DNA of 64,000 bases from Lingula anatina (taxonomy: Eukaryota; Animalia; Brachiopoda): the NCBI GenBank assembly GCA_051362555.1, contig CM120642.1, forward strand, positions 14,384,001 through 14,448,000, given 5' to 3'. Made by a program: the position numbers and the translations under genes. A model generated the notes under the pieces. That model did no database searches. It worked only from the letters and a program-made list of their open reading frames with translations, and was not told where the DNA came from. Positions 1 to 60,771 of the stretch are shown here, in pieces; the stretch's first letter is position 1; every line of letters begins with the position of its first letter.

Positions 1-3000
1 GCCCCTACCCAGACATGGACTTCACACTTGGATCCAAGCTAAGGTTAGTAAATTTCATTTTTTTGGGGTGGTGGGATGGGTAAATTGAAGAAATCTAATC
101 TTGTTTTTCGTTTCTTTTTATAGGACGAAGAAGATGATGAGGGACCCCACCCGAACATGGACTTCACACTTGGATCCAAGCTAAGGTTAGTAAATTTTAT
201 TTTATCGGGGTGGTGGGATGGGTAAATTAAATAAATCTAATCTTGTTTTTCATTTCTTTTTACAGGACGAAGAAGATGAAGTGAGACCCCAACCGGACAT
301 GGACTTCACCCGTGGATCCAAGCTATGGTAAGTAAATTTCATTTTTTAGGGGTGGCGGGAATGGTAAATTGAAGAAATCTAATCCTGTTTTTCTTTTCTT
401 TTTACAGGATGAAGAAGATGATGAGGGACCCCACCCAGACATGGACTTCACTTTTGGATCAAAGTTAAGGTTAGTAAATTTCATTTTTTTGGGGTGGTGG
501 GATGGGTAAATTGAAGAAATCTAATCTTGTTTTTCTTTTCTTTTTATAGGACGAAGAAGATGATGAGGGACCCCACCCAGACATGGACTTCACACTTGGA
601 TCCAAGCTAAGGTTAGTAAATTTCATTTTTTTAGGGTGGTGGGATGGGTAAATTAAATAAATCTAATCTTCTTTTTCATTTCTTTTTACAGGACGAAGAA
701 GATGAAGTGAGACCCCAACCAGTGGACTTCACCCTTGGATCCAAGCTAAGGTAAGTAAATTTTATTTTTTTGGGGTGGCGGGAATGGTAAATTGAAGAAA
801 TCTAATCCTGTTTTTCGTTTCTTTTTACAGGACAAAGAAGATGATGAGCGCCCCCAACCAGACATGGACTTCACCCTTGGATTCAAGCTAAGGTTAGTAA
901 ATTTCATTTTTTGGGGTGGGGAGATTAGTAAATTGAAGAAATCTAATCCTGTTTTTCGTTTCTTTTTACAGGACAAAGAAGATGATGAGCGCCCCCAACC
1001 GGACATGGACTTCACCCTTGGATTCAAGCTAAGGTTAGTAAATTTCATTTTTTGGGGGTGGGGGGATTAGTAAATTGAAGAAATCTAATCCTGTTTTTCG
1101 TTTCTTTTTATAGGACAAAGAAGATGATGAGCGCCCCTACCCAGACATGGACTTCACACTTGGATCCAAGCTAAGGTTAGTAAATTTTATTTTTTCGGGA
1201 TGGTGGGATGGGTAAATTGAAGAAATCTAATCTTGTTTTTCTTTTCTTTTTACAGGATGAAGAAGATGATAAGGGACCCCACCCAGACATGGACTTCACT
1301 CTTGGATCCAAGTTAAGGTTAGTAAATTTCATTTTTTTGGGGTGGTGGGGTTGGTAAATTGAATAAATCTAATCTTGTTTTTCATTTCTTTTTACAGGAT
1401 GAAGAAGATGAAGTGAGACCCCAACCGGACATGGACTTCACCCTTGGATCCAAGCTAAGGTAAGTAAATTTCATTTTTTTGGGGTGGCGGGAATGGTAAA
1501 TTGAAGAAATCTAATCCTGTTTTTCGTTTCTTTTTACAGGACAAAGAAGATGATGAGCGCCCCTTCCCAGACATGGACTTCACACTTGGATCCAAGCTAA
1601 GGTTAGTAAATTTCATTTTTTTGGGGTGGTGGGATGGGTAAATTAAATAAATCTAATCTTGTTTTTCATTTCTTTTTACAGGACGAAGAAGATGAAGTGA
1701 GACCCCAACCGGACATGGACTTCACCCGTGGATCCAAGCTAAGGTAAGTAAATTTCATTTTTTTGGGGTGGCGGGAATGGTAAATTGAAGAAATCTAATC
1801 CTGTTTTTCGTTTCTTTTTACAGGACAAAGAAGATGATGAGCGCCCCCAACCGGACATGGACTTCACCCTTGGATTCAAGCTAAGGTTAGTAAATTTCAT
1901 TTTTTAGGGGTGGGGGGATTAGTAAATTGAAGAAATCTAATCCTGTTTTTCGTTTCTTTTTACAGGACAAAGAAGATGATGAGCGCCCCTACCCAGACAT
2001 GGACTTCACACTTGGATCCAAGCTAAGGTTAGTAAATTTCATTTTTTTGGGGTGGTGGGATGGGTAAATTGAAGAAATCTAATCTTGTTTTTCTTTTCTT
2101 TTTACAGGATGAAGCAGATGATGAGGGACCCCACCCAGACATGGACTTCACACTTGGATCCAAGTTAAGGTTAGTAAATTTCATTTTTTTGGGGTGATGG
2201 GGTTGGTAAATTGAAGAAATCTAATCTTGTTTTTCATTTCTTTTTACAGGACGAAGAAGATGAAGTGAGACCCCAACCGGACATGGACTTCACCCTTGGA
2301 TCCAAGCTAAGGTAAGTAAATTTCATTTTTTTGGGGTGGCGGGAATGGTAAATTGAAGAAATCTAATCCTGTTTTTCGTTTCTTTTTACAGGACAAAGAA
2401 GATGATGAGCGCCCCCAACCGGACATGGACTTCACCCTTGGATTCAAGCTAAGGTTAGTAAATTTCATTTTTTGGGGGTGGGGGGATTAGTAAATTGAAG
2501 AAATCTAATCCTGTTTTTCGTTTCTTTTTACAGGACAAAGAAGATGATGAACGCCCCTACCCAGACATGGACTTCACACTTGGATCCAAGCTAAGGTTAG
2601 TAAATTTCATTTTTTTGGGGTGGTGGGATGGGTAAATTGAAGAAATCTAATCTTGTTTTTCGTTTCTTTTTATAGGACGAAGAAGATGATGAGGGACCCC
2701 ACCCGAACATGGACTTCACACTTGGATCCAAGCTAAGGTTAGTAAATTTTATTTTATCGGGGTGGTGGGATGGGTAAATTAAATAAATCTAATCTTGTTT
2801 TTCATTTCTTTTTACAGGACGAAGAAGATGAAGTGAGACCCCAACCGGACATGGACTTCACCCGTGGATCCAAGCTATGGTAAGTAAATTTCATTTTTTA
2901 GGGGTGGCGGGAATGGTAAATTGAAGAAATCTAATCCTGTTTTTCTTTTCTTTTTACAGGATGAAGAAGATGATGAGGGACCCCACCCAGACATGGACTT

Positions 3001-6000
3001 CACTTTTGGATCAAAGTTAAGGTTAGTAAATTTCATTTTTTTGGGGTGGTGGGATGGGTAAATTGAAGAAATCTAATCTTGTTTTTCTTTTCTTTTTATA
3101 GGACGAAGAAGATGATGAGGGACCCCACCCAGACGTGGACTTCACACTTGGATCCAAGCTAAGGTTAGTAAATTTCATTTTTTTAGGGTGGTGGGATGGG
3201 TAAATTAAATAAATCTAATCTTCTTTTTCATTTCTTTTTACAGGACGAAGAAGATGAAGTGAGACCCCAACCAGTGGACTTCACCCTTGGATCCAAGCTA
3301 AGGTAAGTAAATTTTATTTTTTTGGGGTGGCGGGAATGGTAAATTGAAGAAATCTAATCCTGTTTTTCGTTTCTTTTTACAGGACAAAGAAGATGATGAG
3401 CGCCCCCAACCAGACATGGACTTCACCCTTGGATTCAAGCTAAGGTTAGTAAATTTCATTTTTTGGGGTGGGGAGATTAGTAAATTGAAGAAATCTAATC
3501 CTGTTTTTCGTTTCTTTTTACAGGACAAAGAAGATGATGAGCGCCCCCAACCGGACATGGACTTCACCCTTGGATTCAAGCTAAGGTTAGTAAATTTCAT
3601 TTTTTGGGGGTGGGGGGATTAGTAAATTGAAGAAATCTAATCCTGTTTTTCATTTCTTTTTACAGGACAAAGAAGATGATGAGCGCCCCTACCCAGACAT
3701 GGACTTCACACTTGGATCCAAGCTAAGGTTAGTAAATTTTATTTTTTCGGGATGGTGGGATGGGTAAATTGAAGAAATCTAATCTTGTTTTTCTTTTCTT
3801 TTTACAGGATGAAGAAGATGATAAGGGACCCCACCCAGACATGGACTTCACTCTTGGATCCAAGTTAAGGTTAGTAAATTTCATTTTTTTGGGGTGGTGG
3901 GGTTGGTAAATTGAATAAATCTAATCTTGTTTTTCATTTCTTTTTACAGGATGAAGAAGATGAAGTGAGACCCCAACCGGACATGGACTTCACCCTTGGA
4001 TCCAAGCTAAGGTAAGTAAATTTCATTTTTTTGGGGTGGCGGGAATGGTAAATTGAAGAAATCTAATCCTGTTTTTCGTTTCTTTTTACAGGACAAAGAA
4101 GATGATGAGCGCCCCTTCCCAGACATGGACTTCACACTTGGATCCAAGTTAAGGTTAGTAAATTTCATTTTTTTGGGGTGATGGGGTTGGTAAATTGAAG
4201 AAATCTAATCTTGTTTTTCATTTCTTTTTACAGGACGAAGAAGATGAAGTGAGACCCCAACCGGACATGGACTTCACCCTTGGATCCAAGCTAAGGTAAG
4301 TAAATTTCATTTTTTTGGGGTGGCGGGAATGGTAAATTGAAGAAATCTAATCCTGTTTTTCGTTTCTTTTTACAGGACAAAGAAGATGATGAGCGCCCCC
4401 AACCGGACATGGACTTCACCCTTGGATTCAAGCTAAGGTTAGTAAATTTCATTTTTTGGGGGTGGGGGGATTAGTAAATTGAAGAAATCTAATCCTGTTT
4501 TTCGTTTCTTTTTACAGGACAAAGAAGATGATGAACGCCCCTACCCAGACATGGACTTCACACTTGGATCCAAGCTAAGGTTAGTAAATTTCATTTTTTT
4601 GGGGTGGTGGGATGGGTAAATTGAAGAAATCTAATCTTGTTTTTCGTTTCTTTTTATAGGACGAAGAAGATGATGAGGGACCCCACCCGAACATGGACTT
4701 CACACTTGGATCCAAGCTAAGGTTAGTAAATTTTATTTTATCGGGGTGGTGGGATGGGTAAATTAAATAAATCTAATCTTGTTTTTCATTTCTTTTTACA
4801 GGACGAAGAAGATGAAGTGAGACCCCAACCGGACATGGACTTCACCCGTGGATCCAAGCTATGGTAAGTAAATTTCATTTTTTAGGGGTGGCGGGAATGG
4901 TAAATTGAAGAAATCTAATCTTGTTTTTCTTTTCTTTTTATAGGACGAAGAAGATGATGAGGGACCCCACCCAGACATGGACTTCACACTTGGATCCAAG
5001 CTAAGGTTAGTAAATTTCATTTTTTTAGGGTGGTGGGATGGGTAAATTAAATAAATCTAATCTTCTTTTTCATTTCTTTTTACAGGACGAAGAAGATGAA
5101 GTGAGACCCCAACCAGTGGACTTCACCCTTGGATCCAAGCTAAGGTAAGTAAATTTTATTTTTTTGGGGTGGCGGGAATGGTAAATTGAAGAAATCTAAT
5201 CCTGTTTTTCGTTTCTTTTTACAGGACAAAGAAGATGATGAGCGCCCCCAACCAGACATGGACTTCACCCTTGGATTCAAGCTAAGGTTAGTAAATTTCA
5301 TTTTTTGGGGTGGGGAGATTAGTAAATTGAAGAAATCTAATCCTGTTTTTCGTTTCTTTTTACAGGACAAAGAAGATGATGAGCGCCCCCAACCGGACAT
5401 GGACTTCACCCTTGGATTCAAGCTAAGGTTAGTAAATTTCATTTTTTGGGGGTGGGGGGATTAGTAAATTGAAGAAATCTAATCCTGTTTTTCGTTTCTT
5501 TTTACAGGACAAAGAAGATGATGAGCGCCCCTACCCAGACATGGACTTCACACTTGGATCCAAGCTAAGGTTAGTAAATTTTATTTTTTCGGGATGGTGG
5601 GATGGGTAAATTGAAGAAATCTAATCTTGTTTTTCTTTTCTTTTTACAGGATGAAGAAGATGATAATGGACCCCACCCAGACATGGACTTCACTCTTGGA
5701 TCCAAGTTAAGGTTAGTAAATTTCATTTTTTTGGGGTGGTGGGGTTGGTAAATTGAATAAATCTAATCTTGTTTTTCATTTCTTTTTACAGGATGAAGAA
5801 GATGAAGTGAGACCCCAACCGGACATGGACTTCACCCTTGGATCCAAGCTAAGGTAAGTAAATTTCATTTTTTTGGGGTGGCGGGAATGGTAAATTGAAG
5901 AAATCTAATCCTGTTTTTCGTTTCTTTTTACAGGACAAAGAAGATGATGAGCGCCCCTTCCCAGACATGGACTTCACACTTGGATCCAAGCTAAGGTTAG

Positions 6001-9000
6001 TAAATTTCATTTTTTTGGGGTGGTGGGATGGGTAAATTAAATAAATCTAATCTTGTTTTTCATTTCTTTTTACAGGACGAAGAAGATGAAGTGAGACCCC
6101 AACCGGACATGGACTTCACCCGTGGATCCAAGCTAAGGTAAGTAAATTTCATTTTTTTGGGGTGGCGGGAATGGTAAATTGAAGAAATCTAATCCTGTTT
6201 TTCGTTTCTTTTTACAGGACAAAGAAGATGATGAGCGCCCCCAACCGGACATGGACTTCACCCTTGGATTCAAGCTAAGGTTAGTAAATTTCATTTTTTA
6301 GGGGTGGGGGGATTAGTAAATTGAAGAAATCTAATCCTGTTTTTCGTTTCTTTTTACAGGACAAAGAAGATGATGAGCGCCCCTACCCAGACATGGACTT
6401 CACACTTGGATCCAAGCTAAGGTTAGTAAATTTCATTTTTTTGGGGTGGTGGGATGGGTAAATTGAAGAAATCTAATCTTGTTTTTCTTTTCTTTTTACA
6501 GGATGAAGCAGATGATGAGGGACCCCACCCAGACATGGACTTCACACTTGGATCCAAGTTAAGGTTAGTAAATTTCATTTTTTTGGGGTGATGGGGTTGG
6601 TAAATTGAAGAAATCTAATCTTGTTTTTCATTTCTTTTTACAGGACGAAGAAGATGAAGTGAGACCCCAACCGGACATGGACTTCACCCTTGGATCCAAG
6701 CTAAGGTAAGTAAATTTCATTTTTTGGGGGTGGCGGGAATGGTAAATTGAAGAAATCTAATCCTGTTTTTCGTTTCTTTTTACAGGACAAAGAAGATGAT
6801 GAGCGCCCCCAACCGGACATGGACTTCACCCTTGGATTCAAGCTAAGGTTAGTAAATTTCATTTTTTGGGGGTGGGGGGATTAGTAAATTGAAGAAATCT
6901 AATCCTGTTTTTCGTTTCTTTTTACAGGACAAAGAAGATGATGAACGCCCCTACCCAGACATGGACTTCACACTTGGATCCAAGCTAAGGTTAGTAAATT
7001 TCATTTTTTTGGGGTGGTGGGATGGGTAAATTGAAGAAATCTAATCTTGTTTTTCGTTTCTTTTTATAGGACGAAGAAGATGATGAGGGACCCCACCCGA
7101 ACATGGACTTCACACTTGGATCCAAGCTAAGGTTAGTAAATTTTATTTTATCGGGGTGGTGGGATGGGTAAATTAAATAAATCTAATCTTGTTTTTCATT
7201 TCTTTTTACAGGACGAAGAAGATGAAGTGAGACCCCAACCGGACATGGACTTCACCCGTGGATCCAAGCTATTGTAAGTAAATTTCATTTTTTAGGGGTG
7301 GCGGGAATGGTAAATTGAAGAAATCTAATCCTGTTTTTCTTTTCTTTTTACAGGATGAAGAAGATGATGAGGGACCCCACCCAGACATGGACTTCACTTT
7401 TGGATCAAAGTTAAGGTTAGTAAATTTCATTTTTTTGGGGTGGTGGGATGGGTAAATTGAAGAAATCTAATCTTGTTTTTCTTTTCTTTTTATAGGACGA
7501 AGAAGATGATGAGGGACCCCACCCAGACATGGACTTCACACTTGGATCCAAGCTAAGGTTAGTAAATTTCATTTTTTTAGGGTGGTGGGATGGGTAAATT
7601 AAATAAATCTAATCTTCTTTTTCATTTCTTTTTACAGGACGAAGAAGATGAAGTGAGACCCCAACCAATGGACTTCACCCTTGGATCCAAGCTAAGGTAA
7701 GTAAATTTTATTTTTTTGGGGTGGCGGGAATGGTAAATTGAAGAAATCTAATCCTGTTTTTCGTTTCTTTTTACAGGACAAAGAAGATGATGAGCGCCCC
7801 CAACCAGACATGGACTTCACCCTTGGATTCAAGCTAAGGTTAGTAAATTTCATTTTTTGGGGTGGGGAGATTAGTAAATTGAAGAAATCTAATCCTGTTT
7901 TTCGTTTCTTTTTACAGGACAAAGAAGATGATGAGCGCCCCCAACCGGACATGGACTTCACCCTTGGATTCAAGCTAAGGTTAGTAAATTTCATTTTTTG
8001 GGGGTGGGGGGATTAGTAAATTGAAGAAATCTAATCCTGTTTTTCGTTTCTTTTTACAGGACAAAGAAGATGATGAGCGCCCCTACCCAGACATGGACTT
8101 CACACTTGGATCCAAGCTAAGGTTAGTAAATTTTATTTTTTCGGGATGGTGGGATGGGTAAATTGAAGAAATCTAATCTTGTTTTTCTTTTCTTTTTACA
8201 GGATGAAGAAGATGATAAGGGACCCCACCCAGACATGGACTTCACTCTTGGATCCAAGTTAAGGTTAGTAAATTTCATTTTTTTGGGGTGATGGGGTTGG
8301 TAAATTGAATAAATCTAATCTTGTTTTTCATTTCTTTTTACAGGATGAAGAAGATGAAGTGAGACCCCAACCGGACATGGACTTCACCCTTGGATCCAAG
8401 CTAAGGTAAGTAAATTTCATTTTTTTGGGGTGGCGGGAATGGTAAATTGAAGAAATCTAATCCTGTTTTTCGTTTCTTTTTACAGGACAAAGAAGATGAT
8501 GAGCGCCCCTTCCCAGACATGGACTTCACACTTGGATCCAAGCTAAGGTTAGTAAATTTCATTTTTTTGGGGTGGTGGGATGGGTAAATTAAATAAATCT
8601 AATCTTGTTTTTCATTTCTTTTTACAGGACGAAGAAGATGAAGTGAGACCCCAACCGGACATGGACTTCACCCGTGGATCCAAGCTAAGGTAAGTAAATT
8701 TCATTTTTTTTGGGGTGGCGGGAATGGTAAATTGAAGAAATCTAATGCTGTTTTTCGTTTCTTTTTACAGGACAAAGAAGGTGATGAGCGCCCCCAACCG
8801 GACATGGACTTCACCCTTGGATTCAAGCTAAGGTTAGTAAATTTCATTTTTTAGGGGTGGGGGGATTAGTAAATTGAAGAAATCTAATCCTGTTTTTCGT
8901 TTCTTTTTACAGGACAAAGAAGATGATGAGCGCCCCTACCCAGACATGGAGTTCACACTTGGATCCAAGCTAAGGTTAGTAAATTTCATTTTTTTTGGGG

Positions 9001-21000: not shown

Positions 21001-24000
21001 TATGGACTTCACACTTGGATCCAAGCTAAGGTTAGTAAATTTCATTTTTTTGGGGTGGTGGGATGGGTAAATTAAATAAATCTAATCTTGTTTTTCATTT
21101 CTTTTTACAGGACGAAGAAGATGAAGTGAGACCCCAACCGGACATGGACTTCACCCGTGGATCCAAGCTAAGGTAAGTAAATTTCATTTTTTTGGGGTGG
21201 CGGGAATGGTAAATTGAAGAAATCTAATCCTGTTTTTCGTTTCTTTTTACAGGACAAAGAAGATGATGAGCGCCCCCAACCGGACATGGACTTCACCCTT
21301 GGATTCAAGCTAAGGTTAGTAAATTTCATTTTTTAGGGGTGGGGGGATTAGTAAATTGAAGAAATCTAATCCTGTTTTTCGTTTCTTTTTACAGGACAAA
21401 GAAGATGATGAGCGCCCCTACCCAGACATGGACTTCACACTTGGATCCAAGCTAAGGTTAGTAAATTTCATTTTTTTGGGGTGGTGGGATGGGTAAATTG
21501 AAGAAATCTAATCTTGTTTTTCTTTTCTTTTTACAGGACGAAGAAGATGAAGTGAGACCCCAACCGGACATGGACTTCACCCTTGGATCCAAGCTAAGGT
21601 AAGTAAATTTCATTTTTTTGGGGTGGCGGGAATGGTAAATTGAAGAAATCTAATCCTGTTTTTCGTTTCTTTTTACAGGACGAAGAAGATGAAGTGAGAC
21701 CCCAACCGGACATGGACTTCACCCTTGGATCCAAGCTAAGGTAAGTAAATTTCATTTTTTTGGGGTGGCGGGAATGGTAAATTGAAGAAATCTAATCCTG
21801 TTTTTCGTTTCTTTTTACAGGACGAAGAAGATGAAGTGAGACCCCAACCGGACATGGACTTCACCCTTGGATCCAAGCTAAGGTTAGTAAATTTTATTTT
21901 TTCGGGGTGGTGGGATGGGTAAATTGAAGAAATCTAATCTTGTTTTTCGTTTCTTTTTATAGGACGAAGAAGATGAGGGACCCCACCCGGACATGGACTT
22001 CACACTTGGATCCAATCTAAGGTTAGTAAATTTCATTTTTTTGGGGTGGTGGGATGGGTAAATTGAAGAAATCTAATCTTGTTTTTCTTTTTTTTTTTAC
22101 AGGATGAAGAAGATGATGAGGGACCCCACCCAGACATGGACTTCACTCTTGGATCCAAGTTAAGGTTAGTAAATTTCATTTTTTTGGGGTGATGGGGTTG
22201 GTAAATTGAAGAAATCTAATCTTGTTTTTCATTTCTTTTTACAGGACGAAGAAGATGAAGTGAGACCCCAACCGGACATGGACTTCACCCTTGGATCCAA
22301 GCTAAGGTAAGTAAATTTCATTTTTTTGGGGTGTGGGGATTAGTAAATTGAAGAAATCTAATCCTGTTTTTCGTTTCTTTTTAAAGGACAAAGAAGATGA
22401 TGAGCGCCCCTACCCAGACATGGACTTCACCCTTGGATTCAAGCTAAGGTTAGTAAATTTTATTTTTTCGGGGTGGCGGGAATGGTAAATTGAAGAAATC
22501 TAATCCTGTTTTTCGTTTCTTTTTACAGGACAAAGAAGATGATGAGCGCCCCCAACCGGACATGGACTTCACCCTTGGATTCAAGCTAAGGTTAGTAAAT
22601 TTCATTTTTTGGGGGTGGGGGGATTAGTAAATTGAAGAAATCTAATCCTGTTTTTCGTTTCTTTTTACAGGACAAAGAAGATGATGAGCGCCCCTACCCA
22701 GACATGGACTTCACACTTGGATCCAAGCTAAGGTTAGTAAATTTTATTTTTTCGGGGTGGTGGGATGGGTAAATTGAAGAAATCTAATCTTGTTTTTCGT
22801 TTCTTTTTATAGGACGAAGAAGATGATGAGGGACCCCACTCGGACATGGACTTCACACTTGGATCCAAGCTAAGGTTAGTAAATTTCATTTTTTTGGGGT
22901 GGTGGGATGGGTAAATTGAAGAAATCTAATCTTGTTTTTCTTTTATTTTTACAGGATGAAGAAGATGATGAGGGACCCCACCCAGACATGGACTTCATTC
23001 TTGGATCCAAGTTAAGGTTAGTAAATTTCATTTTTTTTGGGGTGATGGGGTTGGTAAATTGAAGAAATCTAATCCTGTTTTTCTTTTCTTTTTACAGGAC
23101 GAAGAAGATGAAGTGAGACCCCAACCGGACATGGACTTCACCCTTGGATCCTAGCTAAGGTTAGTAAATTTCATTTTTTTGGGGTGGTGGGATGGGTAAA
23201 TTGAAGAAATCTAATCTTGTTTTTCTTTTATTTTTACAGGATGAAGAAGATGATGAGGGACCCCACCCAGACATGGACTTCATTCTTGGATCCAAGCTAA
23301 GGTTAGTAAATTTCATTTTTTTGGGGTGGTGGGATGGGTAAATTGAAGAAATCTAATCTTGTTTTTCATTTCTTTTTACAGGACGAAGAAGATGAAGTGA
23401 GACCCCAACCGGACATGGACTTCACCCGTGGATCCAAGCTAAGGTAAGTAAATTTCATTTTTTTGGGGTGGCGGGAATGGTAAATTGAAGAAATCTAATC
23501 CTGTTTTTCTTTTCTTTTTACAGGATGAAGAAGATGATGAGGGACCCCACCCAGACATGGACTTCACTCTTGGATCAAAGTTAAGGTTAGTAAATTTCAT
23601 TTCTTTGGCGTGGTGGGATGGGTAAATTGAAGAAATCTAATCTTGTTTTTCTTTTCTTTTTATAGGACGAAGAAGATGATGAGGGACCCCACCCAGACAT
23701 GGACTTCACACTTGGATCCAAGCTAAGGTTAGTAAATTTCATTTTTTTAGGGTGGTGGGATGGGTAAATTAAATAAATCTAAGCTTCTTTTTCATTTCTT
23801 TTTACAGGACGAAGAAGATGAAGTGAGACCCTAACCGGACATGGACTTCACCCTTGGATCCAAGCTAAGGTAAGTAAATTTTATTTTTTTGGGGTGGCGG
23901 GAATGGTAAATTGAAGAAATCTAATCCTGTTTTTCGTTTCTTTTTACAGGACAAAGAAGATGATGAGCGCCCCCAACCGGACATGGACTTCACCCTTGGA

Positions 24001-27000
24001 TTCAAGCTAAGGTTAGTAAATTTCATTTTTTGGGGTGGGGAGATTAGTAAATTGAAGAAATCTAATCCTGTTTTTCGTTTCTTTTTACAGGACAAAGAAG
24101 ATGATGAGCGCCCCTTCCCAGACATGGACTTCACACTTGGATCCAAGCTAAGGTTAGTAAATTTTATTTTTTCGGTGTGGTGGGATGGGTAAATTGAAGA
24201 AATCTAATCTTGTTTTTGTTTTCTTTTTACAGAATGAAGAAGATGATGAGGGACCCCACCCAGATATGGACTTCACACTTGGATCCAAGCTAAGGTTAGT
24301 AAATTTCATTTTTTTTGGGGTGGTGGGATGGGTAAATTAAATAAATCTAATCTTGTTTTTCATTTCTTTTTACAGGACGAAGAAGATGAAGTGAGACCCC
24401 AACCGGACATGGACTTCACCCGTGGATCCAAGCTAAGGTAAGTAAATTTCATTTTTTTGGGGTGGCGGGAATGGTAAATTGAAGAAATCTAATCCTGTTT
24501 TTCGTTTCTTTTTACAGGACAAAGAAGATGATGAGCGCCCCCAACCGGACATGGACTTCACCCTTGGATTCAAGCTAAGGTTAGTAAATTTCATTTTTAA
24601 GGGGTGGGGGGATTAGTAAATTGAAGAAATCTAATCCTGTTTTTCGTTTCTTTTTACAGGACAAAGAAGATGATGAGCGCCCCTACCCAGACATGGACTT
24701 CACACTTGGATCCAAGCTAAGGTTAGTAAATTTCATTTTTTTGGGGTGGTGGGATGGGTAAATTGAAGAAATCTAATCTTGTTTTTCTTTTCTTTTTACA
24801 GGACGAAGAAGATGAAGTGAGACCCCAACCGGACATGGACTTCACCCTTGGATCCAAGCTAAGGTAAGTAAATTTCATTTTTTTGGGGTGGCGGGAATGG
24901 TAAATTGAAGAAATCTAATCCTGTTTTTCGTTTCTTTTTACAGGACGAAGAAGATGAAGTGAGACCCCAACCGGACATGGACTTCACCCTTGGATCCAAG
25001 CTAAGGTAAGTAAATTTCATTTTTTTGGGGTGGCGGGAATGGTAAATTGAAGAAATCTAATCCTGTTTTTCGTTTCTTTTTACAGGACGAAGAAGATGAA
25101 GTGAGACCCCAACCGGACATGGACTTCACCCTTGGATCCAAGCTAAGGTTAGTAAATTTTATTTTTTCGGGGTGGTGGGATGGGTAAATTGAAGAAATCT
25201 AATCTTGTTTTTCGTTTCTTTTTATAGGACGAAGAAGATGAGGGACCCCACCCGGACATGGACTTCACACTTGGATCCAATCTAAGGTTAGTAAATTTCA
25301 TTTTTTTGGGGTGGTGGGATGGGTAAATTGAAGAAATCTAATCTTGTTTTTCTTTTTTTTTTTACAGGATGAAGAAGATGATGAGGGACCCCACCCAGAC
25401 ATGGACTTCACTCTTGGATCCAAGTTAAGGTTAGTAAATTTCATTTTTTTGGGGTGATGGGGTTGGTAAATTGAAGAAATCTAATCTTGTTTTTCATTTC
25501 TTTTTACAGGACGAAGAAGATGAAGTGAGACCCCAACCGGACATGGACTTCACCCTTGGATCCAAGCTAAGGTAAGTAAATTTCATTTTTTTGGGGTGTG
25601 GGGATTAGTAAATTGAAGAAATCTAATCCTGTTTTTCGTTTCTTTTTAAAGGACAAAGAAGATGATGAGCGCCCCTACCCAGACATGGACTTCACCCTTG
25701 GATTCAAGCTAAGGTTAGTAAATTTTATTTTTTCGGGGTGGCGGGAATGGTAAATTGAAGAAATCTAATCCTGTTTTTCGTTTCTTTTTACAGGACAAAG
25801 AAGATGATGAGCGCCCCCAACCGGACATGGACTTCACCCTTGGATTCAAGCTAAGGTTAGTAAATTTCATTTTTTGGGGGTGGGGGGATTAGTAAATTGA
25901 AGAAATCTAATCCTGTTTTTCGTTTCTTTTTACAGGACAAAGAAGATGATGAGCGCCCCTACCCAGACATGGACTTCACACTTGGATCCAAGCTAAGGTT
26001 AGTAAATTTTATTTTTTCGGGGTGGTGGGATGGGTAAATTGAAGAAATCTAATCTTGTTTTTCGTTTCTTTTTATAGGACGAAGAAGATGATGAGGGACC
26101 CCACTCGGACATGGACTTCACACTTGGATCCAAGCTAAGGTTAGTAAATTTCATTTTTTTGGGGTGGTGGGATGGGTAAATTGAAGAAATCTAATCTTGT
26201 TTTTCTTTTATTTTTACAGGATGAAGAAGATGATGAGGGACCCCACCCAGACATGGACTTCATTCTTGGATCCAAGTTAAGGTTAGTAAATTTCATTTTT
26301 TTTGGGGTGATGGGGTTGGTAAATTGAAGAAATCTAATCCTGTTTTTCTTTTCTTTTTACAGGACGAAGAAGATGAAGTGAGACCCCAACCGGACATGGA
26401 CTTATCCTTGGATCCTAGCTAAGGTAAGTAAATTTCATTTTTTTGGGGTGGCGGGAATGGTAAATTGAAGAAATCTAATCCTGTTTTTCGTTTCTTTTTA
26501 CAGGACAAAGAAGATGATGAGCGCCCCCAACCGGACATGGACTTCACCCTTGGATTCAAGCTAAGGTTAGTAAATTTCATTTTTTGGGGGTGGGGGGATT
26601 AGTAAATTGAAGAAATCTAATCCTGTTTTTCGTTTCTTTTTACAGGACAAAGAAGATGATGAGCGCCCCTACCCAGACATGGACTTCACACTTGGATCCA
26701 AGCTAAGGTTAGTAAATTTTATTTTTTCGGGGTGGTGGGATGGGTAAATTGAAGAAATCTAATCTTGTTTTTCGTTTCTTTTTATAGGACGAAGAATATG
26801 ATGAGGGACCCCACTCGGACATGGACTTCACACTTGGATCCAAGCTAAGGTTAGTAAATTTCATTTTTTTGGGGTGGTGGGATGGGTAAATTGAAGAAAT
26901 CTAATCTTGTTTTTCTTTTATTTTTACAGGATGAAGAAGATGATGAGGGACCCCACCCAGACATGGACTTCACTCTTGGATCCAAGTTAAGGTTAGTAAA

Positions 27001-42000: not shown

Positions 42001-45000
42001 GGACCCCACCCAGATATGGACTTCACACTTGGATCCAAGCTAAGGTTAGTAAATTTCATTTTTTTTATGGTGGTGGGATGGGTAAATTAAATAAATCTAA
42101 TCTTGTTTTTCATTTCTTTTTACAGGACGAAGAAGATGAAGTGAGACCCGAACTGGACATGGACTTCACCCGTGGATCCAAGCTAAGGTAAGTAAATTTC
42201 ATTTTTTTGGGGTGGCGGGAATGGTAAATTGAAGAAATCTAATCCTGTTTTTCGTTTCTTTTTACAGGACAAAGAAGATGATGAGCGCCCCCAACCGGAC
42301 ATGGACTTCACCCTTGGATTCAAGCTAAGGTTAATAAATTTCATTTTTTGGGGGTGGGGGGATTAGTAAATTGAAGAAATCTAATCCTGTTTTTCGTTTC
42401 TTTTTACAGGACAAAGAAGATGATGAGCGCCCCTACCCAGACATGGACTTCACACTTGGATCCAAGCTAAGGTTAGTAAATTTCATTTTTTTGGGGTTGT
42501 GGGATGGGTAAATTGAAGAAATCTAATCTTGTTTTTCTTTTCTTTTTACAGGATGAAGCAGATGATGAGGGACCCCACCCAGACATGGACTTCACACTTG
42601 GATCCAAGTTAAGGTTAGTAAATTTCATTTTTTTTGGGGTGATGGGGTTGGTAAATTGAAGAAATCTAATCTTGTTTTTCATTTCTTTTTACAGGATGAA
42701 GAAGATGATAAGGGACCCCACCCAGACATGGACTTCACTCTTGGATCCAAGTTAAGGTTAGTAAATTTCATTTTTTTGGGGTGGCGGGAATGGTAAATTG
42801 AAGAAATCTAATCCTGTTTTTCGTTTCTTTTTACAGGACAAAGAAGATGATGAGCGCCCCCAACCGGACATGGACTTCACCCTTGGATTCAAGCTAAGGT
42901 TAGTAAATTTCATTTTTTGGGGGTGGGGGGATTAGTAAATTGAAGAAATCTAATCCTGTTTTTCGTTTCTTTTTACAGGACAAAGAAGATGATGAGCACC
43001 CCTACCCAGACATGGACTTCACACTTGGATCCAAGCTAAGGTTAGTAAATTTTATTTTTTCGGGGTGGTGGGATGGGAAAATTGAAGAAATCTAATCTTG
43101 TTTTTCGTTTCTTTTTATAGGACGAAGAAGATGATGAGGGACCCCACCCGGGCATGGACTTCACACTTGGATCCAAGCTAAGGTTAGTAAATTTCATTTT
43201 TTTGGGGTGGTGGGATGGGTAAATTGAAGAAATCTAATCTTGTTTTTCTTTTTTTTTTACAGGATGAAGAAGATGATGAGGGACCCCACCCAGACATGGA
43301 CTTCACTCTTGGATCCAAGTTAAGGTTAGTAAATTTCATTTTTTTGGGGTGATGGGGTTGGTAAATTGAAGAAATCTAATCTTGTTTTTCATTTCTTTTT
43401 ACAGGACGAAGAAGATGAAGTGAGACCCCAACCGGACATGGACTTCACCCTTGGATCCAAGCTAAGGTAAGTAAATTTCATTTTTTGGGGGGGCGGGAAT
43501 GGTAAATTGAAGAAATCTAATCCTGTTTCTCGTTTCTTTTTACAGGACAAAGAAGATGATGAGCGCCCCCAACCGGACATGGACTTCACCCTTGGATTCA
43601 AGCTAAGGTTAGTAAATGTCATTTTTTGGGGGTGGGGGGATTAGTAAATTGAAGAAATCTAATCCTGTTTTTCGTTTCTTTTTACAGGACAAAGAAGATG
43701 ATGAGTGCCCCTACCCAGACATGGACTTCACACTTGGATCCAAGCTAAGGTTAGTAAATTTCATTTTTTTGGGGTGGTGGGATGGGTAAATTGAAGAAAT
43801 CTAATCTTGTTTTTCGTTTCTTTTTATAGAACGAAGAAGATGATGAGGGACCCCACCCGGACATGGACTTCACACTTGGATCCAAGCTAAGGTTAGTAAA
43901 TTTTATTTTATCGGGGTGGTGGGATGGGTAAATTAAATAAATCTAATCTTGTTTTTCATTTCTTTTTACAGGACGAAGAAGATGAAGTGAGACCCCAACC
44001 GGACATGGACTTCACCCGTGGATCCAAGCTAAGGTTAGTAAATTTCATTTTTTGGGGGCGGGGGGATTAGTAAATTGAAGAAATCTAATCCTGTTTTTCG
44101 TTTCTTTTTACAGGACAAAGAAGATGATGAGCGCCCCTACCCAGACATGGACTTCACACTTGGATCCAAGCTAAGGTTAGTAAATTTTACTTTTTCGGGA
44201 TGGTGGGATGGGTAAATTGAAGAAATCTAATCTTGTTTTTCTTTTCTTTTTACAGGATGAAGAAGATGATAAGGGACCCCACCCAGACATGGACTTCACT
44301 CTTGGATCCAAGTTAAGGTTAGTAAATTTCATTTTTTTGGGGTGGTGGGATGGGTAAATTAAATAAATCTAATCTTCTTTTTCATTTCTTTTTACAGGAC
44401 GAAGAAGATGAAGTGAGATCCCAACCGGACATGGACTTCACCCTTGGATCCAAGCTAAGGTAAGTAAATTTTATTTTTTTGGGGTGGCGGGAATGGTAAA
44501 TTGAAGAAATCTAATCCTGTTTTTCGTTTCTTTTTACAGGACAAAGAAGATGATGAGCGCCCCCAACCGGACATGGACTTCACCCTTGGATTCAAGCTAA
44601 GGTTAGTAAATTTCATTTTTTGGGGTGGGGAGATTAGTAAATTGAAGAAATCTAATCCTGTTTTTCGTTTCTTTTTACAGGACAAAGAAGATGATGAGCG
44701 CCCCTTCCCAGACATGGACTTCACACTTGGATCCAAGCTAAGGTTAGTAAATTTTATTTTTTCGGTGTGGTGGGATGGGTAAATTTAAGAAATCTAATCT
44801 TGTTTTTGTTTTCTTTTTACAGAATGAAGAAGATGATGAGGGACCCCACCCAGATATGGACTTCACACTTGGATCCAAGCTAAGGTTAGTAAATTTCATT
44901 TTTTTGGGGTGGTGGGATGGGTAAATTAAATAAATCTAATCTTGTTTTTCATTTCTTTTTACAGGACGAAGAAGATGAAGTGAGACCCCAACCGGACATG

Positions 45001-48000
45001 GACTTCACCCGTGGATCCAAGCTAAGGTAAGTAAATTTCATTTTTTTGGGGTGGCGGGAATGGTAAATTGAAGAAATCTAATCCTGTTTTTCGTTTCTTT
45101 TTACAGGACAAAGAAGATGATGAGCGCCCCCAACCGGACATGGACTTCACCCTTGGATTCAAGCTAAGGTTAGTAAATTTCATTTTTTAGGGGTGGGGGG
45201 ATTAGTAAATTGAATAAATCTAATCCTGTTTTTCGTTTCTTTTTACAGGACAAAGAAGATGATGAGCGCCCCTACCCAGACATGGACTTCACACTTGGAT
45301 CCAAGCTAAGGTTAGTAAATTTCATTTTTTTGGGGTGGTGGGATGGGTAAATTGAAGAAATCTAATCTTGTTTTTCTTTTCTTTTTACAGGATGAAGCAG
45401 ATGATGAGGGACTCCACCCAGACATGGACTTCACACTTGGATCCAAACTAAGGTTAGTAAATTTCATTTTTTTGGGGTGGTGGGATGGGTAAATTGAAGA
45501 AATCTAATCTTGTTTTTCTTTTTTTTTTACAGGATGAAGAAGATGATGAGCGCCCCTACCCAGACATGGACTTCACACTTGGATCCAAGCTAAGGTTAGT
45601 AAATTTCATTTTTTTGGGGTGGTGGGATGGGTAAATTGAAGAAATCTAATCTTGTTTTTCGTTTCTTTTTATAGGACAAAGAAGATGATGAGGGACCCCA
45701 CCCGGACATGGACTTCACACTTGGATCCAAGCTAAGGTTAGTAAATTTCATTTTTTTGGGGTGGTGGGATGGGTAAATTAAAGAAATCTAATCTTGTTTT
45801 TCTTTTCTTTTTACAGGATGAAGAAGATGATGAGGGACCCCACCCAGACATGGACTTCACTCTTGGATCCAAGTTAAGGTTAGTAAATTTCATTTTTTTT
45901 GGGGTGGTGGGGTTGGTAAATTGAAGAAATCTAATCTTGTTTTTCATTTCTTTTTACAGGACGAAGAAGATGAAGTGAGACCCCAACTGGACATGGACTT
46001 CACCCTTGGATCCAAGCTAAGGTAAGTAAATTTCTTTTTTTGGGGGGTGGCGGGAATGGTAAATTGAAGAAATCTAATCCTGTTTTTCGTTTCTTTTTAC
46101 AGGACAAAGATGATGATGAGCGCCCCCAACCGGACATGGACTTCACCCTTGGATTCAAGCTAAGGTTAGTAAATTTCATTATTTTGGGGTGGGGGGATTA
46201 GTAAATTGAAGAAATCTAATCCTGTTTTTGGTTTCTTTTTACAGGACAAAGAAGATGATGAGTGCCCCCAACCGGACATGGACTTCACCCTTGGATTCAA
46301 GCTAAGGTTAGTAAATTTCATTTTTTTGGGGTGGTGGGATTGGTAAATTGAAGAAATCTAATCTTGTTTTTCTTTTCTTTTTACAGGCTGAAGAAGATGA
46401 TGAGGGACCCCACCCAGACATGGACTTCACTCTTGGATCAAAGTTAAGGTTAGTAAATTTCATTTTTTTGGGGTGGTTGGATGGGTAAATTGAAGAAATC
46501 TAATCTTGTTTTTCTTTTCTTTTTATAGGACGAAGAAGATGATGAGGGACCCCACCCAGACATGGACTTCACACTTGGATCCAAACTAAGGTTAGTAAAT
46601 TTCATTTTTTTGGGGTGGTGGGATGGGTAAATTGAAGAAATCTAATCTTGTTTTTCGTTTCTTTTTATAGGACAAAGAAGATGATGAGGGACCCCACCCG
46701 GACATGGACTTCACACTTGGATCCAAGCTAAGGTTAGTAAATTTCATTTTTTTGGGGTGGTGGGATGGGTAAATTGAAGAAATCTAATCTTGTTTTTCTT
46801 TTCTTTTTACAGGATGAAGAAGATGATGAGGGACCCCACCCAGACATGGACTTCACTCTTGGATCCAAGTTAAGGTTAGTAAATTTCATTTTTTTTGGGG
46901 TGGTGGGGTTGGTAAATTGAAGAAATCTAATCTTGTTTTTCATTTCTTTTTACAGGACGAAGAAGATGAAGTGAGACCCCAACTGGACATGGACTTCACC
47001 CTTGGATCCAAGCTAAGGTAAGTAAATTTCTTTTTTGGGGGGGTGGCGGGAATGGTAAATTGAAGAAATCTAATCCTGTTTTTCGTTTCTTTTTACAGGA
47101 CAAAGATGATGATGAGCGCCCCCAACCGGACATGGACTTCACCCTTGGATTCAAGCTAAGGTTAGTAAATTTCATTATTTTGGGGTGGGGGGATTAGTAA
47201 ATTGAAGAAATCTAATCCTGTTTTTGGTTTCTTTTTACAGGACAAAGAAGATGATGAGTGCCCCCAACCGGACATGGACTTCACCCTTGGATTCAAGCTA
47301 AGGTTAGTAAATTTCATTTTTTTGGGGTGGTGGGATTGGTAAATTGAAGAAATCTAATCTTGTTTTTCTTTTCTTTTTACAGGCTGAAGAAGATGATGAG
47401 GGACCCCACCCAGACATGGACTTCACTCTTGGATCAAAGTTAAGGTTAGTAAATTTCATTTTTTTGGGGTGGTTGGATGGGTAAATTGAAGAAATCTAAT
47501 CTTGTTTTTCTTTTCTTTTTATAGGACGAAGAAGATGATGAGGGACCCCACCCAGACATGGACTTCACACTTGGATCCAAACTAAGGTTAGTAAATTTCA
47601 TTTTTTTGGTTTGGTGGGATGGGTAAATTAAATAAATCTAATCTTCTTTTTCATTTCTTTTTAAAGGACGAAGAAGATGAATTGAGACCCCAACCGGACA
47701 TGGACTTCACACTTGGATCCAAGCTAAGGTAAGTAAATTTCATTTTTTGGGGGTGGCGGGAATGGTAAATTGAAGAAATCTAATCCTGTTTTTCGTTTCT
47801 TTTTACAGGACAAAGAAGATGTTGAGCGCCCCCAATCGGACATGGACTTCACCCTTGGATTCAAGCTAAGGTTAGTAAATTTCATTTTTTGGGGGTGGGG
47901 AGATTAGTAAATTGAAGAAATCTAATCCTGTTTTTCGTTTCTTTTTACAGGACAAAGAAGATGATGAGCGCCCCTACCCAGACATGGACTTCACACTTGG

Positions 48001-51000
48001 ATCCAAGCTAAGGTTAGTAAATTTCATTTTTTTGGGGTGGTGGGATGGGTAAATTGAAGAAATCTAATCTTGTTTTTCGTTTCTTTTTATAGGACGAAGA
48101 AGATGATGAGGGACCCCACCCGGACATGGACTTCACACTTGGATCCAAGCTAAGGTTAGTAAATTTCATTTTTTTGGGGTGGTGGGATGGGTAAATTGAA
48201 GAAATCTAATCTTGTTTTTCTTTTCTTTTTACAGGATGAAGAAGATGATGAGGGACCCCACCCAGACATGGACTTCACTCTTGGATCCAAGTTAAGGTTA
48301 GTAAATTTCATTTTTTTGGGGTGGTGGGGTTGGTAAATTGAATAAATCTAATCTTGTTTTTCATTTCTTTTTACAGGATGAAGAAGATGAAGTGAGACCC
48401 CAACCGGACATGGACTTCACCCTTGGATCCAAGCTAAGGTAAGTAAATTTCATTTTTTTGGGGTGGCGGGAATGGTAAATTGAAGAAATCTAATCCTGTT
48501 TTTCGTTTCTTTTTACAGGACAAAGAAGATGATGAGCGCCCCCAACCGGACATGGACTTCACTCTTGGATTCAAGCTAAGGTTAGTAAATTTCATTATTT
48601 TGGGGTGGGGGGATTAGTAAATTGAAGAAATCTAATCCTGTTTTTGGTTTCTTTTTATAGGACAAAGAAGATGATGAGGGACCCCACCCAGATATGGACT
48701 TCGCTCTTGGATCCAAGCTAAGGTTAGTAAATTTCATTTTTTTGGGGGTGGCGGAATGGTAAATTGAAGAAATCTAATCCTGTTTTTCGTTTCTTTTTAC
48801 AGGACAAAGAAGATGATGAGCGCCCCCAACCGGACATGGACTTCACCCTTGGATTCAAGCTAAGGTTAGTAAATTTCATTTTTTGGGGTGGGGGGATTAG
48901 TAAATTGAAGAAATCTAATCCTGTTTTTGGTTTCTTTTTACAGGACAAAGAAGATGATGAGCGCCCCTACCCAGACATGGACTTCACACTTGGATCCAAG
49001 CTAAGGTTAGTAAATTTCATTTTTTCGGGTTGGTGGGATGGGTAAATTAAAGAAATCTAATCTTGTTTTTGTTTTCTTTTTACAGAATGAAGAAGATGAT
49101 GAGGGACCCCACCCAGATATGGACTTCACTCTTGGATCCAAGCTAAGGTTAGTAAATTTAATTATTTTGGGGTGGGGGGATTAGTATATTGAAGAAATCT
49201 AATCCTGTTTTTGGTTTCTTTTAACAGGACAAAGAAGATGATGAGCGCCCCTACCCAGACATGGACTTCACACTTGGATCCAAGCTAAGGTTAGTAAATT
49301 TCATTTTTTCAGGGTGGTGAGATGGGTAAATTGAAGAAATCTAATCTTGTTTTTGTTTTCTTTTTACAGAATGAAGAAGATGATGAGGGACCCCACCCAG
49401 ATATGGACTTCACTCTTGGATCCAAGCTAAGGTTAGTAAATTTCATTTTTTTGGGGTGGCGGGAATGGTAAATTGAAGAAGTCTAATCTTGTTTTTCGTT
49501 TCTTTTTACAGGACGAAGAAGATAATGATCGAGGGACCCCACCCGGACATGGACTTTACCCTTGGATCCAAGCTAAGGTTAGTAAATTTCATTTTTTTGG
49601 GGTGGCAGGAATGGTAAATTGAAGAAATCTAATCCTGTTTTTCGTATCTTTTTACAGGACAAAGAAGATGATGAGCGCCCCTACCCAGACATGGACTTCA
49701 CACTTGAATCCCAGCTAAGGTTAGTAAATTTCATTTTTTCGGGGTGGTGGGATGGATAAATTGAAGAAATCTAATCTTGTTTTTCTTTTCTTTTTACAGG
49801 ATGAAGAAGATGATGAGGGACCACACCCAGACATGGACTTCACTCTTGGATCCAAGTTAAGATTAGTAAATTTCATTTTTTTGGGGTGGTGGGATGGGTA
49901 AATTGAAGAAATCTTATCTTGTTTTTCATTTCTTTTTATAGGACGAAGAAGATGATGAGGGACCCCACCCGGACATGGACTTTACTCTTGGATCCAAGCT
50001 AAGGTTAGTAAATTTCATTTTTTTGGGGTGGTGGGATTGGCAAATTGCATAAATCTAATCTTGTTTTTCGTTTCTTTTTACAGGACAAAGAAGATGAAGT
50101 GAGACCCCAACCGGACATGGACTTCACTCTTGGATCCAAGCTAAGGTTAGTAAATTTCATTTTTTTGGGGTGGTGGGATTGGTAAATTGCATAAATCTAA
50201 TCTTGTTTTTCGTTTCTTTTTACAGGACAAAGAAGATGAAGTGAGACCCCAACCGGACATGGACTTCACCCGTGGATCCAAGCTAAGGTTAGTAAATTTC
50301 ATTTTTTGGGGGTGGGGGGATTAGTAAATTGACGAAATCTAATCCTGTTTTTCGTTTCTTTTTACAGGACAAAGAAGATGATGAACGCCCCTACCCAGAC
50401 ATGGACTTCACACTTGGATCCAAGCTAAGGTTAGTAAATTTCATTTTTTTGGGGTGGTGGGATGGGTAAATTGAAGAAATCTAATCTTGTTTTTCGTTTC
50501 TTTTTATAGGACGAAGAAGATGATGAGGGACCCCACTCGGACATGGACTTCACACTTAGATCCAAGCTAAGGTTAGTAAATTTCATTTTTTTGGTGTGGC
50601 GGGAATGGTAAATTGAAGAAATCTAATCCTGTTTTTCGTTTTTTTTTACAGGACAAAGAAGATGATGTGCGCCCCTACCCAGACATGGACTTCACACTTG
50701 GATCCCAGCTAAGGTTAGTAAATTTCATTTTTTTGGGGTGGTGGGATGGGTAAATTGAAGAAATCTAAACTTCTTTTTCGTTTCTTTTTACAGGACGAAG
50801 AAGATGATGAGGGACCCCACCCGGACATGGACTTCACTCTTGGATCCAAGTTAAGGTTAGTAAATTTCATTTTTTGGGGGTGGTGGGATTGGTAAATTGA
50901 AGAAATCTAATCCTGTTTTTCGTTTCTTTTTACAGGACGAAGAAGATGATGAGTGCCCCCAACCGGACATGGACTTCACCCTTGGATTCAAGCTAAGGTT

Positions 51001-52551
51001 AGTAAATTTCATTTTTTTGGGGTGGTGGGATGGGTAAATTAAATAAATCTAATCTTGTTTTTCATTTCTTTTTACAGGACAAAGAAGATGAAGTGAGACC
51101 CCGACCGGACATGGACTTCACCCTTGGATCCAAGCTAAGGTTAGTAAATTTCATTTTTTTTGAGTGGTGGGATTGGTAAATTGAAGAAATGTAATCCTGT
51201 TTTTCGTTTCTTTTTACAGTACAAAGAAGATGATGAGCGACCCCATCCGGACATGGACTTCACTCTTGGATCCAAGTTAAGGTTAGTAAATTTCATTTTT
51301 TTGGGGTGGTGGGATTGGTAAATTGAAGAAATCTAATCCTGTTTTTCGTTTCTTTTTACAGGACGAAGAAGATGATGAGTGCCCCCAACCGGACATGGAC
51401 TTCACCCTTGGATCCAAATTAAGGTAAGTAAATTTAACTTTTTTGGGGTGGTGGGATTGGTAAATTGAAGAAATCTAATCTTGTTTTTCGTTTCTTTTTA
51501 TAGGACAAAGAAGATGAAGTGAGACCCCAACCGGACATGGACTTCACTCTTGGATCAAAGCTAAGGTAAGTAAATTCCATTTTTTGGGGGTGGTGGGATT
51601 GGTAAATTGAAGAAATGTAATCCTGTTTTTCGTTTCTTTTTACAGGACAAAGAAGATGATGAGCGCCCCTACCCAGACATGGACTTCACACTTGGATCCA
51701 AGTTAAGGTAAGTAAATTTCATTGTTTTGGGGTGGTGGGATGGGTAAATTGAGGAAATCTTATCTTGTTTTTCGTTTCTTTTTACAGGACAAAGAAGATG
51801 ATGAGCGACCCCACCCGGACATGGACTGCACTCTTGGATCCAAGTTAAGGTAAGTAAATTTAATTTTTTTGGTGGGTGGTGGGATTGGTAAATTGAAGAA
51901 GTCTAATCTTGTTTTTTATTTCTTTTTACAGGACAAAGAAGATGATGAGCGACCCCACCGGGACATGGACTTCACTCTTGGATCCAAGCTACAGTTAGTA
52001 AATTTCACTTTTTTGGGGGTGGTGGGATTGGTAAATTGAAGAAATCTAACCCTTTTTTTGTTTCTTTTTACAGGACAAAGAAGATGATGAGCGCCCCTAC
52101 CAAGATATGGACTTCACACTTGGATCCAAGTTAAGGTAAGTAAATTTTATTTTTTATGGGGTGGTGGGATGGGTAAATTGAAGAAATCTAATTTTGTTTT
52201 TCGTTTCTTTTTACAGGACAAAGAAGATGATGAGCGACCCCACCCGGACATGGACTGCACTCTTGGATCCAAGTTAAGGTAAGTAAATTTCATTGTTTTG
52301 GGGTGGTGGGATGGGTAAATTGAAGAAGTCTAATCTTGTTTTTTTCGTTTCTTTTTACAGGACTAAGAAGATGAACTGCGACCCCACCCGGACATGGACT
52401 TCCCCCTTGGATCCAAGCTAAGGTTAGTAAATTTCATTTTTTTGGGGTGGTGGGATTGGTAAATTGAAGAAATCTAATCCTGTTTTTCGTTTCTTTTTAC
52501 AGGACAAAGAAGATGATTAGCGACCCCACCCAGACATGGACTCTTGGATCC
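1..52551 (+). repeat. Tandem (satellite-like) array of ~142-bp monomers, about 370 copies in the window, open at the left edge; each monomer has exon-intron architecture on the + strand
   Basis: Seen directly: monomer ~ GACAAAGAAGATGATGAGCGCCCCCAACCGGACATGGACTTCACCCTTGGATCCAAGCTAAG|GT(T/A)AGTAAATTTCAT(6-8)GGGGTGGTGGGATGGGTAAATTGAAGAAATCTAATC(C/T)TGTTTTTCGTTTCTTTTTACAG repeated head-to-tail with no insertions noticed. Copy number is 52551/142, not a direct count. Most monomers carry GGATCC (BamHI) within the 12-bp palindrome CTTGGATCCAAG. Confidence 0.98.
831..892 (+). other. Representative 62-nt exon-like unit of the array (DKEDDERPQPDMDFTLGFKL + AG)
   Basis: Preceded by CTAAT...TTTTTCGTTTCTTTTTACAG (AG at 829-830) and followed by GTTAGT at 893. 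The splice signals are seen in sequence; actual splicing is inferred. Confidence 0.6.
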
Positions 52552-52639
52552 GGAAGACCCAGAAGATTTTCAATTTTAATGTAATATTACACAATGCTTA
52601 ACAGCAAAATAACCATTAATTTTTTAATAATAAAATAAA
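52503..52639 (+). other. Putative terminal exon of the array transcript with in-frame TAG and poly(A) signals
   Basis: Last acceptor TTTTTACAG ends at 52502. GAC AAA GAA GAT GAT TAG follows (stop 52518-52520). The monomer is abandoned after CTTGGATCC at 52551 with no donor. Overlapping AATAAA hexamers at 52629-52634 and 52634-52639, in AT-rich sequence where they could arise by chance. Confidence 0.45.
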
Positions 52640-53039
52640 AGTATCATGGACATTCAAAAAATGTGACTAGCTCATATAGTTCAGAGTCACACTTTGAAAA
52701 TCCCCAAATGTAAAGAAAAGAAAATGTATTGAGAAGAGGTTATGTCCATTTTCAACACCTTTTTTACATAAAACAAAATAATCAATTTACTGTCATTTTT
52801 ATATGATCAATTGAAAAAAATGTTGTCAAAGGAAAAAATAACAATGGAACAGATTCTTAACTTAGTGAATGATTGAATCTGACGAACTGCATAATGTGCA
52901 GGTCTACAATTTTTATATAATCAACTAACAATATTGTTAAGAAGCAGAAAATATCAAAACAACACTCTTACATATCCAATTATTTCCATAATGAGACTAT
53001 TAACATGCCTTAGAATTAAATCTAAAGAAAAAAAACACT

Positions 53040-54120: not shown

Positions 54121-54315
54121 CTGTGTCTGTACATAAAAAATGTTGCTTAATTTAAATGTTAGCCAAACTGAAACTTTTGTGATGTTTTATGTAAAAATGT
54201 GCTGAAATTCAATTTACATCATGTAAACCCCGTCCTTATAATGCTTTATAATTAATACATGACCCAGCCTCAGCGTAGCCAGTGGAACAGATAGAAAAGT
54301 GACACCAGATTACAG

Positions 54316-54355: not shown

Positions 54356-54372
54356 CTCGTCCAATTTCAAAA

Positions 54373-58142: not shown

Positions 58143-60771
<2,629 letters not shown>

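Follow-up and report, generated by a model that had tools for sequence, protein, structure and literature searches.

Overall structure of the array

The window analysed here, a stretch of 64,000 nucleotides of contig CM120642.1 of the brachiopod Lingula anatina (forward strand, positions 14,384,001 to 14,448,000), is occupied over most of its length by a 142-bp tandem array on the plus strand (1–52548, ∼370 units by parsing and Tandem Repeats Finder), followed by a repeat-rich flank and then by the CLN5 gene and its neighbours. Tandem Repeats Finder reports a single array from 3 to 52542 with a period of 142 and 370.1 copies; the original prediction had set the start at 692, but the array begins earlier and is open beyond the 5′ end of the window. 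Each unit consists of a 62-nt purine-rich exon and an 80-nt intron, a division already proposed in the original prediction and borne out by RNA reads in which related copies are spliced. The array is probably an exon–intron satellite whose transcript is likely to be non-coding and spliced in series.

The array as parsed contains 369 complete exon-like segments, of which 357 are 62 nt long, nine are 59 nt long and one each is 61, 63 or 66 nt long, with 366 of the 369 in length class 3n + 2; the introns measure 79–82 nt. AG and GT are both intact in 361 of the 369 units. The donors, in the context AG/GT(T/A)AGT, are GTTAGT in 265 units and GTAAGT in 100, and the acceptors are CAG in 310, TAG in 49 and AAG in three. 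The intron has G-runs, a pyrimidine tract and a terminal YAG, with a branch-like CTAAT motif at intron position 52, 5′ of the tract. A weak stem at around intron positions 30–60 could pair a G-rich segment with CTAAT in several unit types; it is no better than the stems of shuffled sequences, and two common variants break it. The eight units parsed with a broken signal (14443, 27072, 29203, 33034, 33460, 37296, 37722 and 49800) have lost the acceptor AG in seven cases and the donor GT in one. These acceptor losses are shared among duplicated blocks, three as CCG and four as TAT. Splice-signal damage is rarer among recurrent alleles (4:16) than among rare alleles (60:80; P = 0.055), which is suggestive of selection for intact splice signals in the array.

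Six main types, each with 23–84 copies, account for the 368 full monomers and are arranged in irregular higher-order repeats. An identical twin exists for 67–90% of the units in the first 42 kb and for none of the last eight, and the mean nearest-neighbour difference is 0.2–0.5 in the first 42 kb versus 4–8 in the edge units. The diverged, less homogenised edge units (46956–52422, plus strand) have the allele pattern nearest to that of the expressed copies described below, and one of them supplied the reference exon for placing reads (51788–51849, plus strand). The array ends in a truncated unit (52503–52548, plus strand) that carries a 5-nt deletion as well as a TAG in frame 0. With its long head-to-tail organization, homogenised monomer types and diverged edge, the array is a satellite that was homogenised recently and that retains an old edge. 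Higher-order-repeat satellites likewise combine a monomer of ∼140 bp with higher-order structure, a homogenised interior and a diverged edge; the present array differs in having a splice-competent exon–intron pair as its monomer and a housekeeping gene 1.8 kb beyond its end.

Serial splicing in RNA reads

Seven of nine raw RNA-read runs labelled L. anatina were compared with the array: runs X1, X4, X7 and X5 with the array edge and flank (52350–53150) and runs X1, X2, X3 and X8, each of 10.7–12.4 million records, with a single unit (51745–51895), on which 61, 36, 42 and 7 reads were placed, respectively. Over 52350–53150 the array part is covered at low depth and the X1 reads there are almost all first-mate-minus, which given the usual library orientation indicates plus-strand RNA; the joints reported by strand are all of this type. 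Three X1 reads pass from the end of one exon straight into the start of the next, the upstream exon carrying a frame-0 TAA. On the single unit, reads that run off the end of the reference exon and resume at its start, going back 62 nt, number six in X1 and nine in X3. Additional joints with diverged letters were found in X1 (4 + 4 + 2 reads), X2 (two reads) and X3 (two reads). The units implied by these are 63, 62, 62 and 58 nt long, with a further length of 59 nt from two X1 reads. The depth in X1 is 31–57 over the exon and 9–11 just within the intron. The array family is therefore spliced in series on the plus strand at the donor directly following the exon (+0), as observed in reads from related copies. 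The original prediction had foreseen that serial joining yields AG/G followed by a stop in the second exon, and this is the outcome seen in these reads.

The original prediction had also allowed for a second donor, GTAAAT, which lies at +4 in 366 of the 369 units and would give 66-nt in-frame exons encoding a long acidic repeat protein. In the joints listed for X1, X2 and X3, the unit length is 62, 63, 59 or 58 nt and never 66 nt, although the unspliced X1 reads are of the GTTAG type in 11/11 cases. In the window, 103 of the 369 hypothetical 66-nt exons are interrupted by a stop, and clean runs reach 12 at most. The +0 site also fits the donor consensus far better than the +4 site, and use of the latter appears extremely improbable.

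The expressed family members do not keep frame 0. The 21 read variants classified from among the stronger ones listed (leaving out one that reverts a private change of the reference exon) comprise 13 replacements, six synonymous changes and two stops. A frame-0 stop allele is present in 10 of 31 X1 reads, and the in-frame ATG at codon 12, found in 356 of the 357 window exons of 62 nt, is altered in 20 of 42 X1 reads. The intron sequence in the reads is likewise diverged. In all four runs placed on the single unit, 3–10 reads depart after exon position 20 into one divergent continuation with two alleles, which could represent a terminal exon of the expressed family or one that has diverged strongly.

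A spliced-leader array was considered and rejected: the reads placed in any one run number only 7–61, those joints that are listed lead into further copies, as does the loose end that follows the exon, no strict Sm motif is present and an acceptor precedes the exon in every unit as parsed.

Several results weigh against a serially spliced, non-coding transcript of the window copies themselves; those from variation in frame 0 are taken up in the next section. Read counts are small. Alleles carried by 135–199 of the 357 window exons are missing among the read variants listed, and several alleles that are frequent in the reads occur in only 0–4 of the 357. Since the reads lack the dominant types of the window, the evidence for splicing concerns related copies and not the exact window copies; the basic allele pattern of the reads is common to only seven window exons, six of them near the edge. 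Purifying selection on the splice signals does not reach significance (P = 0.055), and an intronless genomic copy of the joined form is formally possible. The missing alleles and the P value for the splice signals also favour a reading in which the homogenised block is silent, transcription being confined to older relatives elsewhere or upstream, and its splice signals are inherited passengers; copies so young would be expected to have intact signals without selection. However, unspliced X2 and X3 reads of both strands, which may be DNA carry-over, are equally diverged and also lack the main alleles of the window, suggesting that the sequenced animals carry other copies. L. anatina is known to diverge among localities (PMC8146825). 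A silent block is considered unlikely.

Variation in frame 0

The original prediction rested on coding-like variation in frame 0. Its inventory was largely confirmed: the other frames are closed by stops (frame 1 in 356/357 and frame 2 in 357/357 exons of 62 nt), and all of the synonymous pairs that it listed for frame 0 are present. Frame 0 is open in nearly all copies, as claimed overall, but in place of a single internal stop near 23832 there are three stop-bearing 62-nt copies (23098, 23808 and 52361), in addition to the TAG of the truncated unit. The recurrent loss of GAC near codon 11 was recovered in six 59-nt exons (692, 3244, 5086, 7638, 11184 and 13595) and that of GAT in three (21963, 25228 and 30764), and the single frameshifted copies correspond to the 61-, 63- and 66-nt exons at 26363, 38573 and 49512. 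Most simply, the two recurrent 3-nt losses represent two events, one of them in a GAT-GAT run, compared with four frame-breaking events, each in single copies.

An open frame in almost every copy amounts to one observation rather than 369 because the copies are recent duplicates. It is also unremarkable, since in 20,000 shuffled exons frame 0 is open in 45% and some plus-strand frame in 88%. Among 73 variant alleles, 31 were seen at least four times, of which 11 are synonymous, 19 are replacements and one lies in the last two bases; the 11 synonymous alleles compare with 8.6 expected (P = 0.15). For the 22 alleles seen at least ten times the test for a synonymous excess gives P = 0.034. The contrast between recurrent and rare alleles gives P = 0.025 for frame 0, the best of the six frames and uncorrected for their number.

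Contrary results also come from pairwise ratios of replacement to synonymous polymorphism (pN/pS), which are lowest in frame 0 of all six frames (0.36–0.53; P = 0.01–0.06, uncorrected). The ratio is 0.36 for the 18 common haplotypes [95% confidence interval (CI) 0.15–0.91], 0.42 for the 21 edge haplotypes (CI 0.21–0.85) and 0.53 for all 87 haplotypes (CI 0.25–1.2), so that the CI lies below 1 in two of the three sets. Diversity is 0.159 at third codon positions versus 0.083 at positions 1 and 2, the latter being near the mid-intron value of 0.091.

The third-position excess is absent when the base is controlled for (observed 11 versus expected 11.1, 10 versus 8.2 and 7 versus 6.1; P = 0.25–0.61). 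With the base fixed, the number of recurrent alleles per site at positions 1 and 2 versus position 3 is 0.26 versus 0.25 for A/T and 0.71 versus 0.75 for G/C. Thus, the coding-like variation stands as a bias that is real but slight, with frame 0 the best of six frames, whereas the excess disappears once base composition is fixed and coding constraint is not established. The bias most likely reflects chance together with the GA-N periodicity of a purine-rich, enhancer-like exon.

A faint relic of a coding ancestor, also raised in the original prediction, is possible but weakly indicated, and no credible ancestral protein was found. For the 43-residue read-through P0001, no credible relatives were identified either among longer proteins, in a weak search, or among proteins of near length. 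One HMMER match among 1.84 billion representatives, P0011 (E = 2.5 × 10−6 summed over three stretches, 47% identity), was set aside as uninformative. P0011 is a repetitive open reading frame (ORF) on a 3.3-kb contig that resembles a short DNA repeat read through successive frames, and the similarity is probably due to chance. A search for the exon motif in metagenome contigs gave no matches.

Downstream flank and the CLN5 gene

A dispersed repeat (52566–53150) with numerous transcribed relatives adjoins the array and is matched by thousands of reads at 80–95% identity, mostly on the opposite strand. The possibility that the truncated last unit is a unique terminal exon bearing a poly(A) signal was examined and rejected: the dispersed repeat begins at ∼52566 and plus-strand X1 depth is ∼1 at 52539–52565. 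A 167-bp tandem repeat follows (53207–53622, 2.4 copies by Tandem Repeats Finder), with further similar copies to ∼54100; we take it to be like the central repeat of Helitrons. The repeats at 52566–54100 as a whole presumably resemble the non-autonomous Helitrons of bivalves, and they could mark how the array edge formed.

The CLN5 gene (54373–57038, plus strand) has five coding exons mapping to 54373–57035 and matches XP_013378841.1; its last exon in the window is 100% identical to this L. anatina ceroid-lipofuscinosis neuronal protein 5. An oyster origin, which the 167-bp repeat had suggested, is rejected on this match. Beyond it lie centrin-like EF-hand exons on the minus strand (58170–60770) and exons of the 3-beta-HSD family on the plus strand (61946–63590), the latter presumably from an NSDHL-like gene. 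The centrin-like and NSDHL-like genes are head to head, an arrangement also found for human CETN2 and NSDHL.

Intron 1 of CLN5 (54477–54752) is in phase 2, the phase at the end of an array exon in frame 0. A splice from the array to CLN5 exon 2 would therefore keep the reading frame, with the array exon substituted for the hydrophobic leader. This leaves room for a scheme in which the exons are alternative cassettes, each productive messenger RNA (mRNA) using a single one in frame 0, joined to a downstream exon in phase 2, for instance exon 2 of CLN5, while the serial forms would be by-products subject to nonsense-mediated decay (NMD). The low frame-0 pN/pS, the 3n + 2 length class and the near-universal in-frame ATG agree with such a scheme. 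However, the joints listed run from exon to exon, none of the joints or loose ends listed is an array-to-CLN5 junction, and expressed copies have frame-0 stops and a lost ATG. The ATG and hydrophobic leader of CLN5 are supplied by a first exon of its own, and by our estimate a phase match would arise by chance roughly one time in four.

The original prediction had likened the array to mutually exclusive exons of the Dscam type. The resemblance (PMC6071210) lies in tandem homologous exons of equal length class; in Dscam-type clusters one exon per mRNA is chosen through docking–selector pairing, whereas exons are joined directly to one another in X1, X2 and X3 (related copies). On the downstream side, between the array and CLN5 exon 2, no docking-like complement to the array units rises above shuffled sequences: the longest reverse-complement matches of the ten commonest units to 52550–54752 are 10–13 nt, the 13-nt match being a T-tract, compared with 9–14 nt for shuffles. 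Exclusive choice is thus argued against by the exon-to-exon joints, by the frame-0 stops in expressed copies and by this lack of a downstream docking-like complement, and we regard the cassette scheme as quite unlikely. Still more specifically, the array could hold several hundred alternative upstream exons, every one of them having an ATG and ending in phase 2, in frame with CLN5 exon 2 or another phase-2 exon, with serial forms destroyed by NMD; this is judged very unlikely. If it were true, the product would have a swapped N-terminus and no signal peptide.

Comparison with known systems

The closest architectural parallels are host transcripts of small RNAs. The SNORD115/SNORD116 host transcripts and rat Bsr/RBII-36 are described in PMC3413130 as tandem exon–intron units within long, non-protein-coding spliced RNA, and they share with the array family repeated units whose non-coding exons are spliced in series (seen here in related copies). 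Their introns carry box C/D small nucleolar RNAs (snoRNAs), whereas the 80-nt intron of the array has no Rfam match, D box or stable fold. In C19MC-HG, too, short exons of 123 nt are repeated and joined serially in an RNA without an obvious ORF, and the complementary DNAs of this host gene likewise differed from the reference sequence (PMC2691840). In that source its units are 400–700 nt long, with intronic microRNA precursors (pre-miRNAs; 46 genes) and Alu elements; the present unit is 142 nt, with ∼370 copies and no hairpin.

These likenesses, together with exons that drift while splicing persists, raise the possibility that the array is itself a host gene with disposable exons, its introns releasing a mirtron, a snoRNA-like RNA or a precursor of PIWI-interacting RNA. 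At the sequence level, no sign was found that the introns encode a snoRNA or microRNA. No Rfam match reaches the gathering score in 49000–54500 (13 matches to E = 5, all far below it), and the predicted folds of six introns and five whole units do not surpass those of shuffled sequences (z of −0.46 to 0.79). The consensus lacks a D box and a strict Sm motif, its sole C-box-like motif is exonic and the introns in the reads have diverged as well. The mirtron and snoRNA readings were rejected on the Rfam, folding and D-box results, and a host-gene role in general seems rather improbable.

The exon-2 repeats of SmPoMuc in Schistosoma mansoni offer a second parallel, one exon and its flanking introns having been amplified in tandem within a gene (PMC2576457). 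That exon, however, is 27 nt long and preserves the frame, giving rise to a protein repeat, and its ∼1-kb units number up to ∼20; the exon here, 62 nt in 357 of 369 segments and joined at the +0 donor, is no multiple of three and breaks the frame. The array is not described in the titles and abstracts searched, and term look-ups in two papers on the Lingula genome (PMC4595640 and 10.1101/2024.05.28.596352) brought up no mention of it, although the supplements of these papers could list it as a repeat family.

Proposed origin and implications

In a serially spliced, non-coding transcript, the introns would be removed one by one and the 62-nt exons joined in series, with the frame breaking at each join. 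Joining all 369 window exons in silico gives 22,855 nt with ∼400 stops per frame and no stop-free stretch longer than 77 codons. The ATG-started frames in the joined exons are mostly 29 (262 cases) or 15 (87 cases) codons long, with a maximum of 51. The short junction-spanning ORFs of 29 codons were considered as a product and rejected: their frame 1 is not constrained (pN/pS of 0.79–1.05), an early stop occurs in type A, and reads often lack the ATG. The RNA would probably be degraded by NMD, which would fit its scarcity. We infer that the array arose by tandem duplication of one exon–intron segment from an older gene, followed by amplification through unequal exchange, and that the homogeneous block represents a recent, probably population-specific expansion of an older and more decayed family.

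What looks like an ordinary 142-bp satellite can consist of stacked exons and introns of a working type, whose splicing is supported by reads at the level of the family, and codon-like variation provides weak support for coding when the repeat is purine-rich. If the window copies are transcribed as one RNA, it would contain ∼370 introns, comparable to the roughly 360 exons of titin, and yet encode nothing long. The array would then offer a natural test of whether selection maintains splice signals in a repeat that does not code for protein, and of the behaviour of exon duplication where the duplicated exon disrupts the frame.

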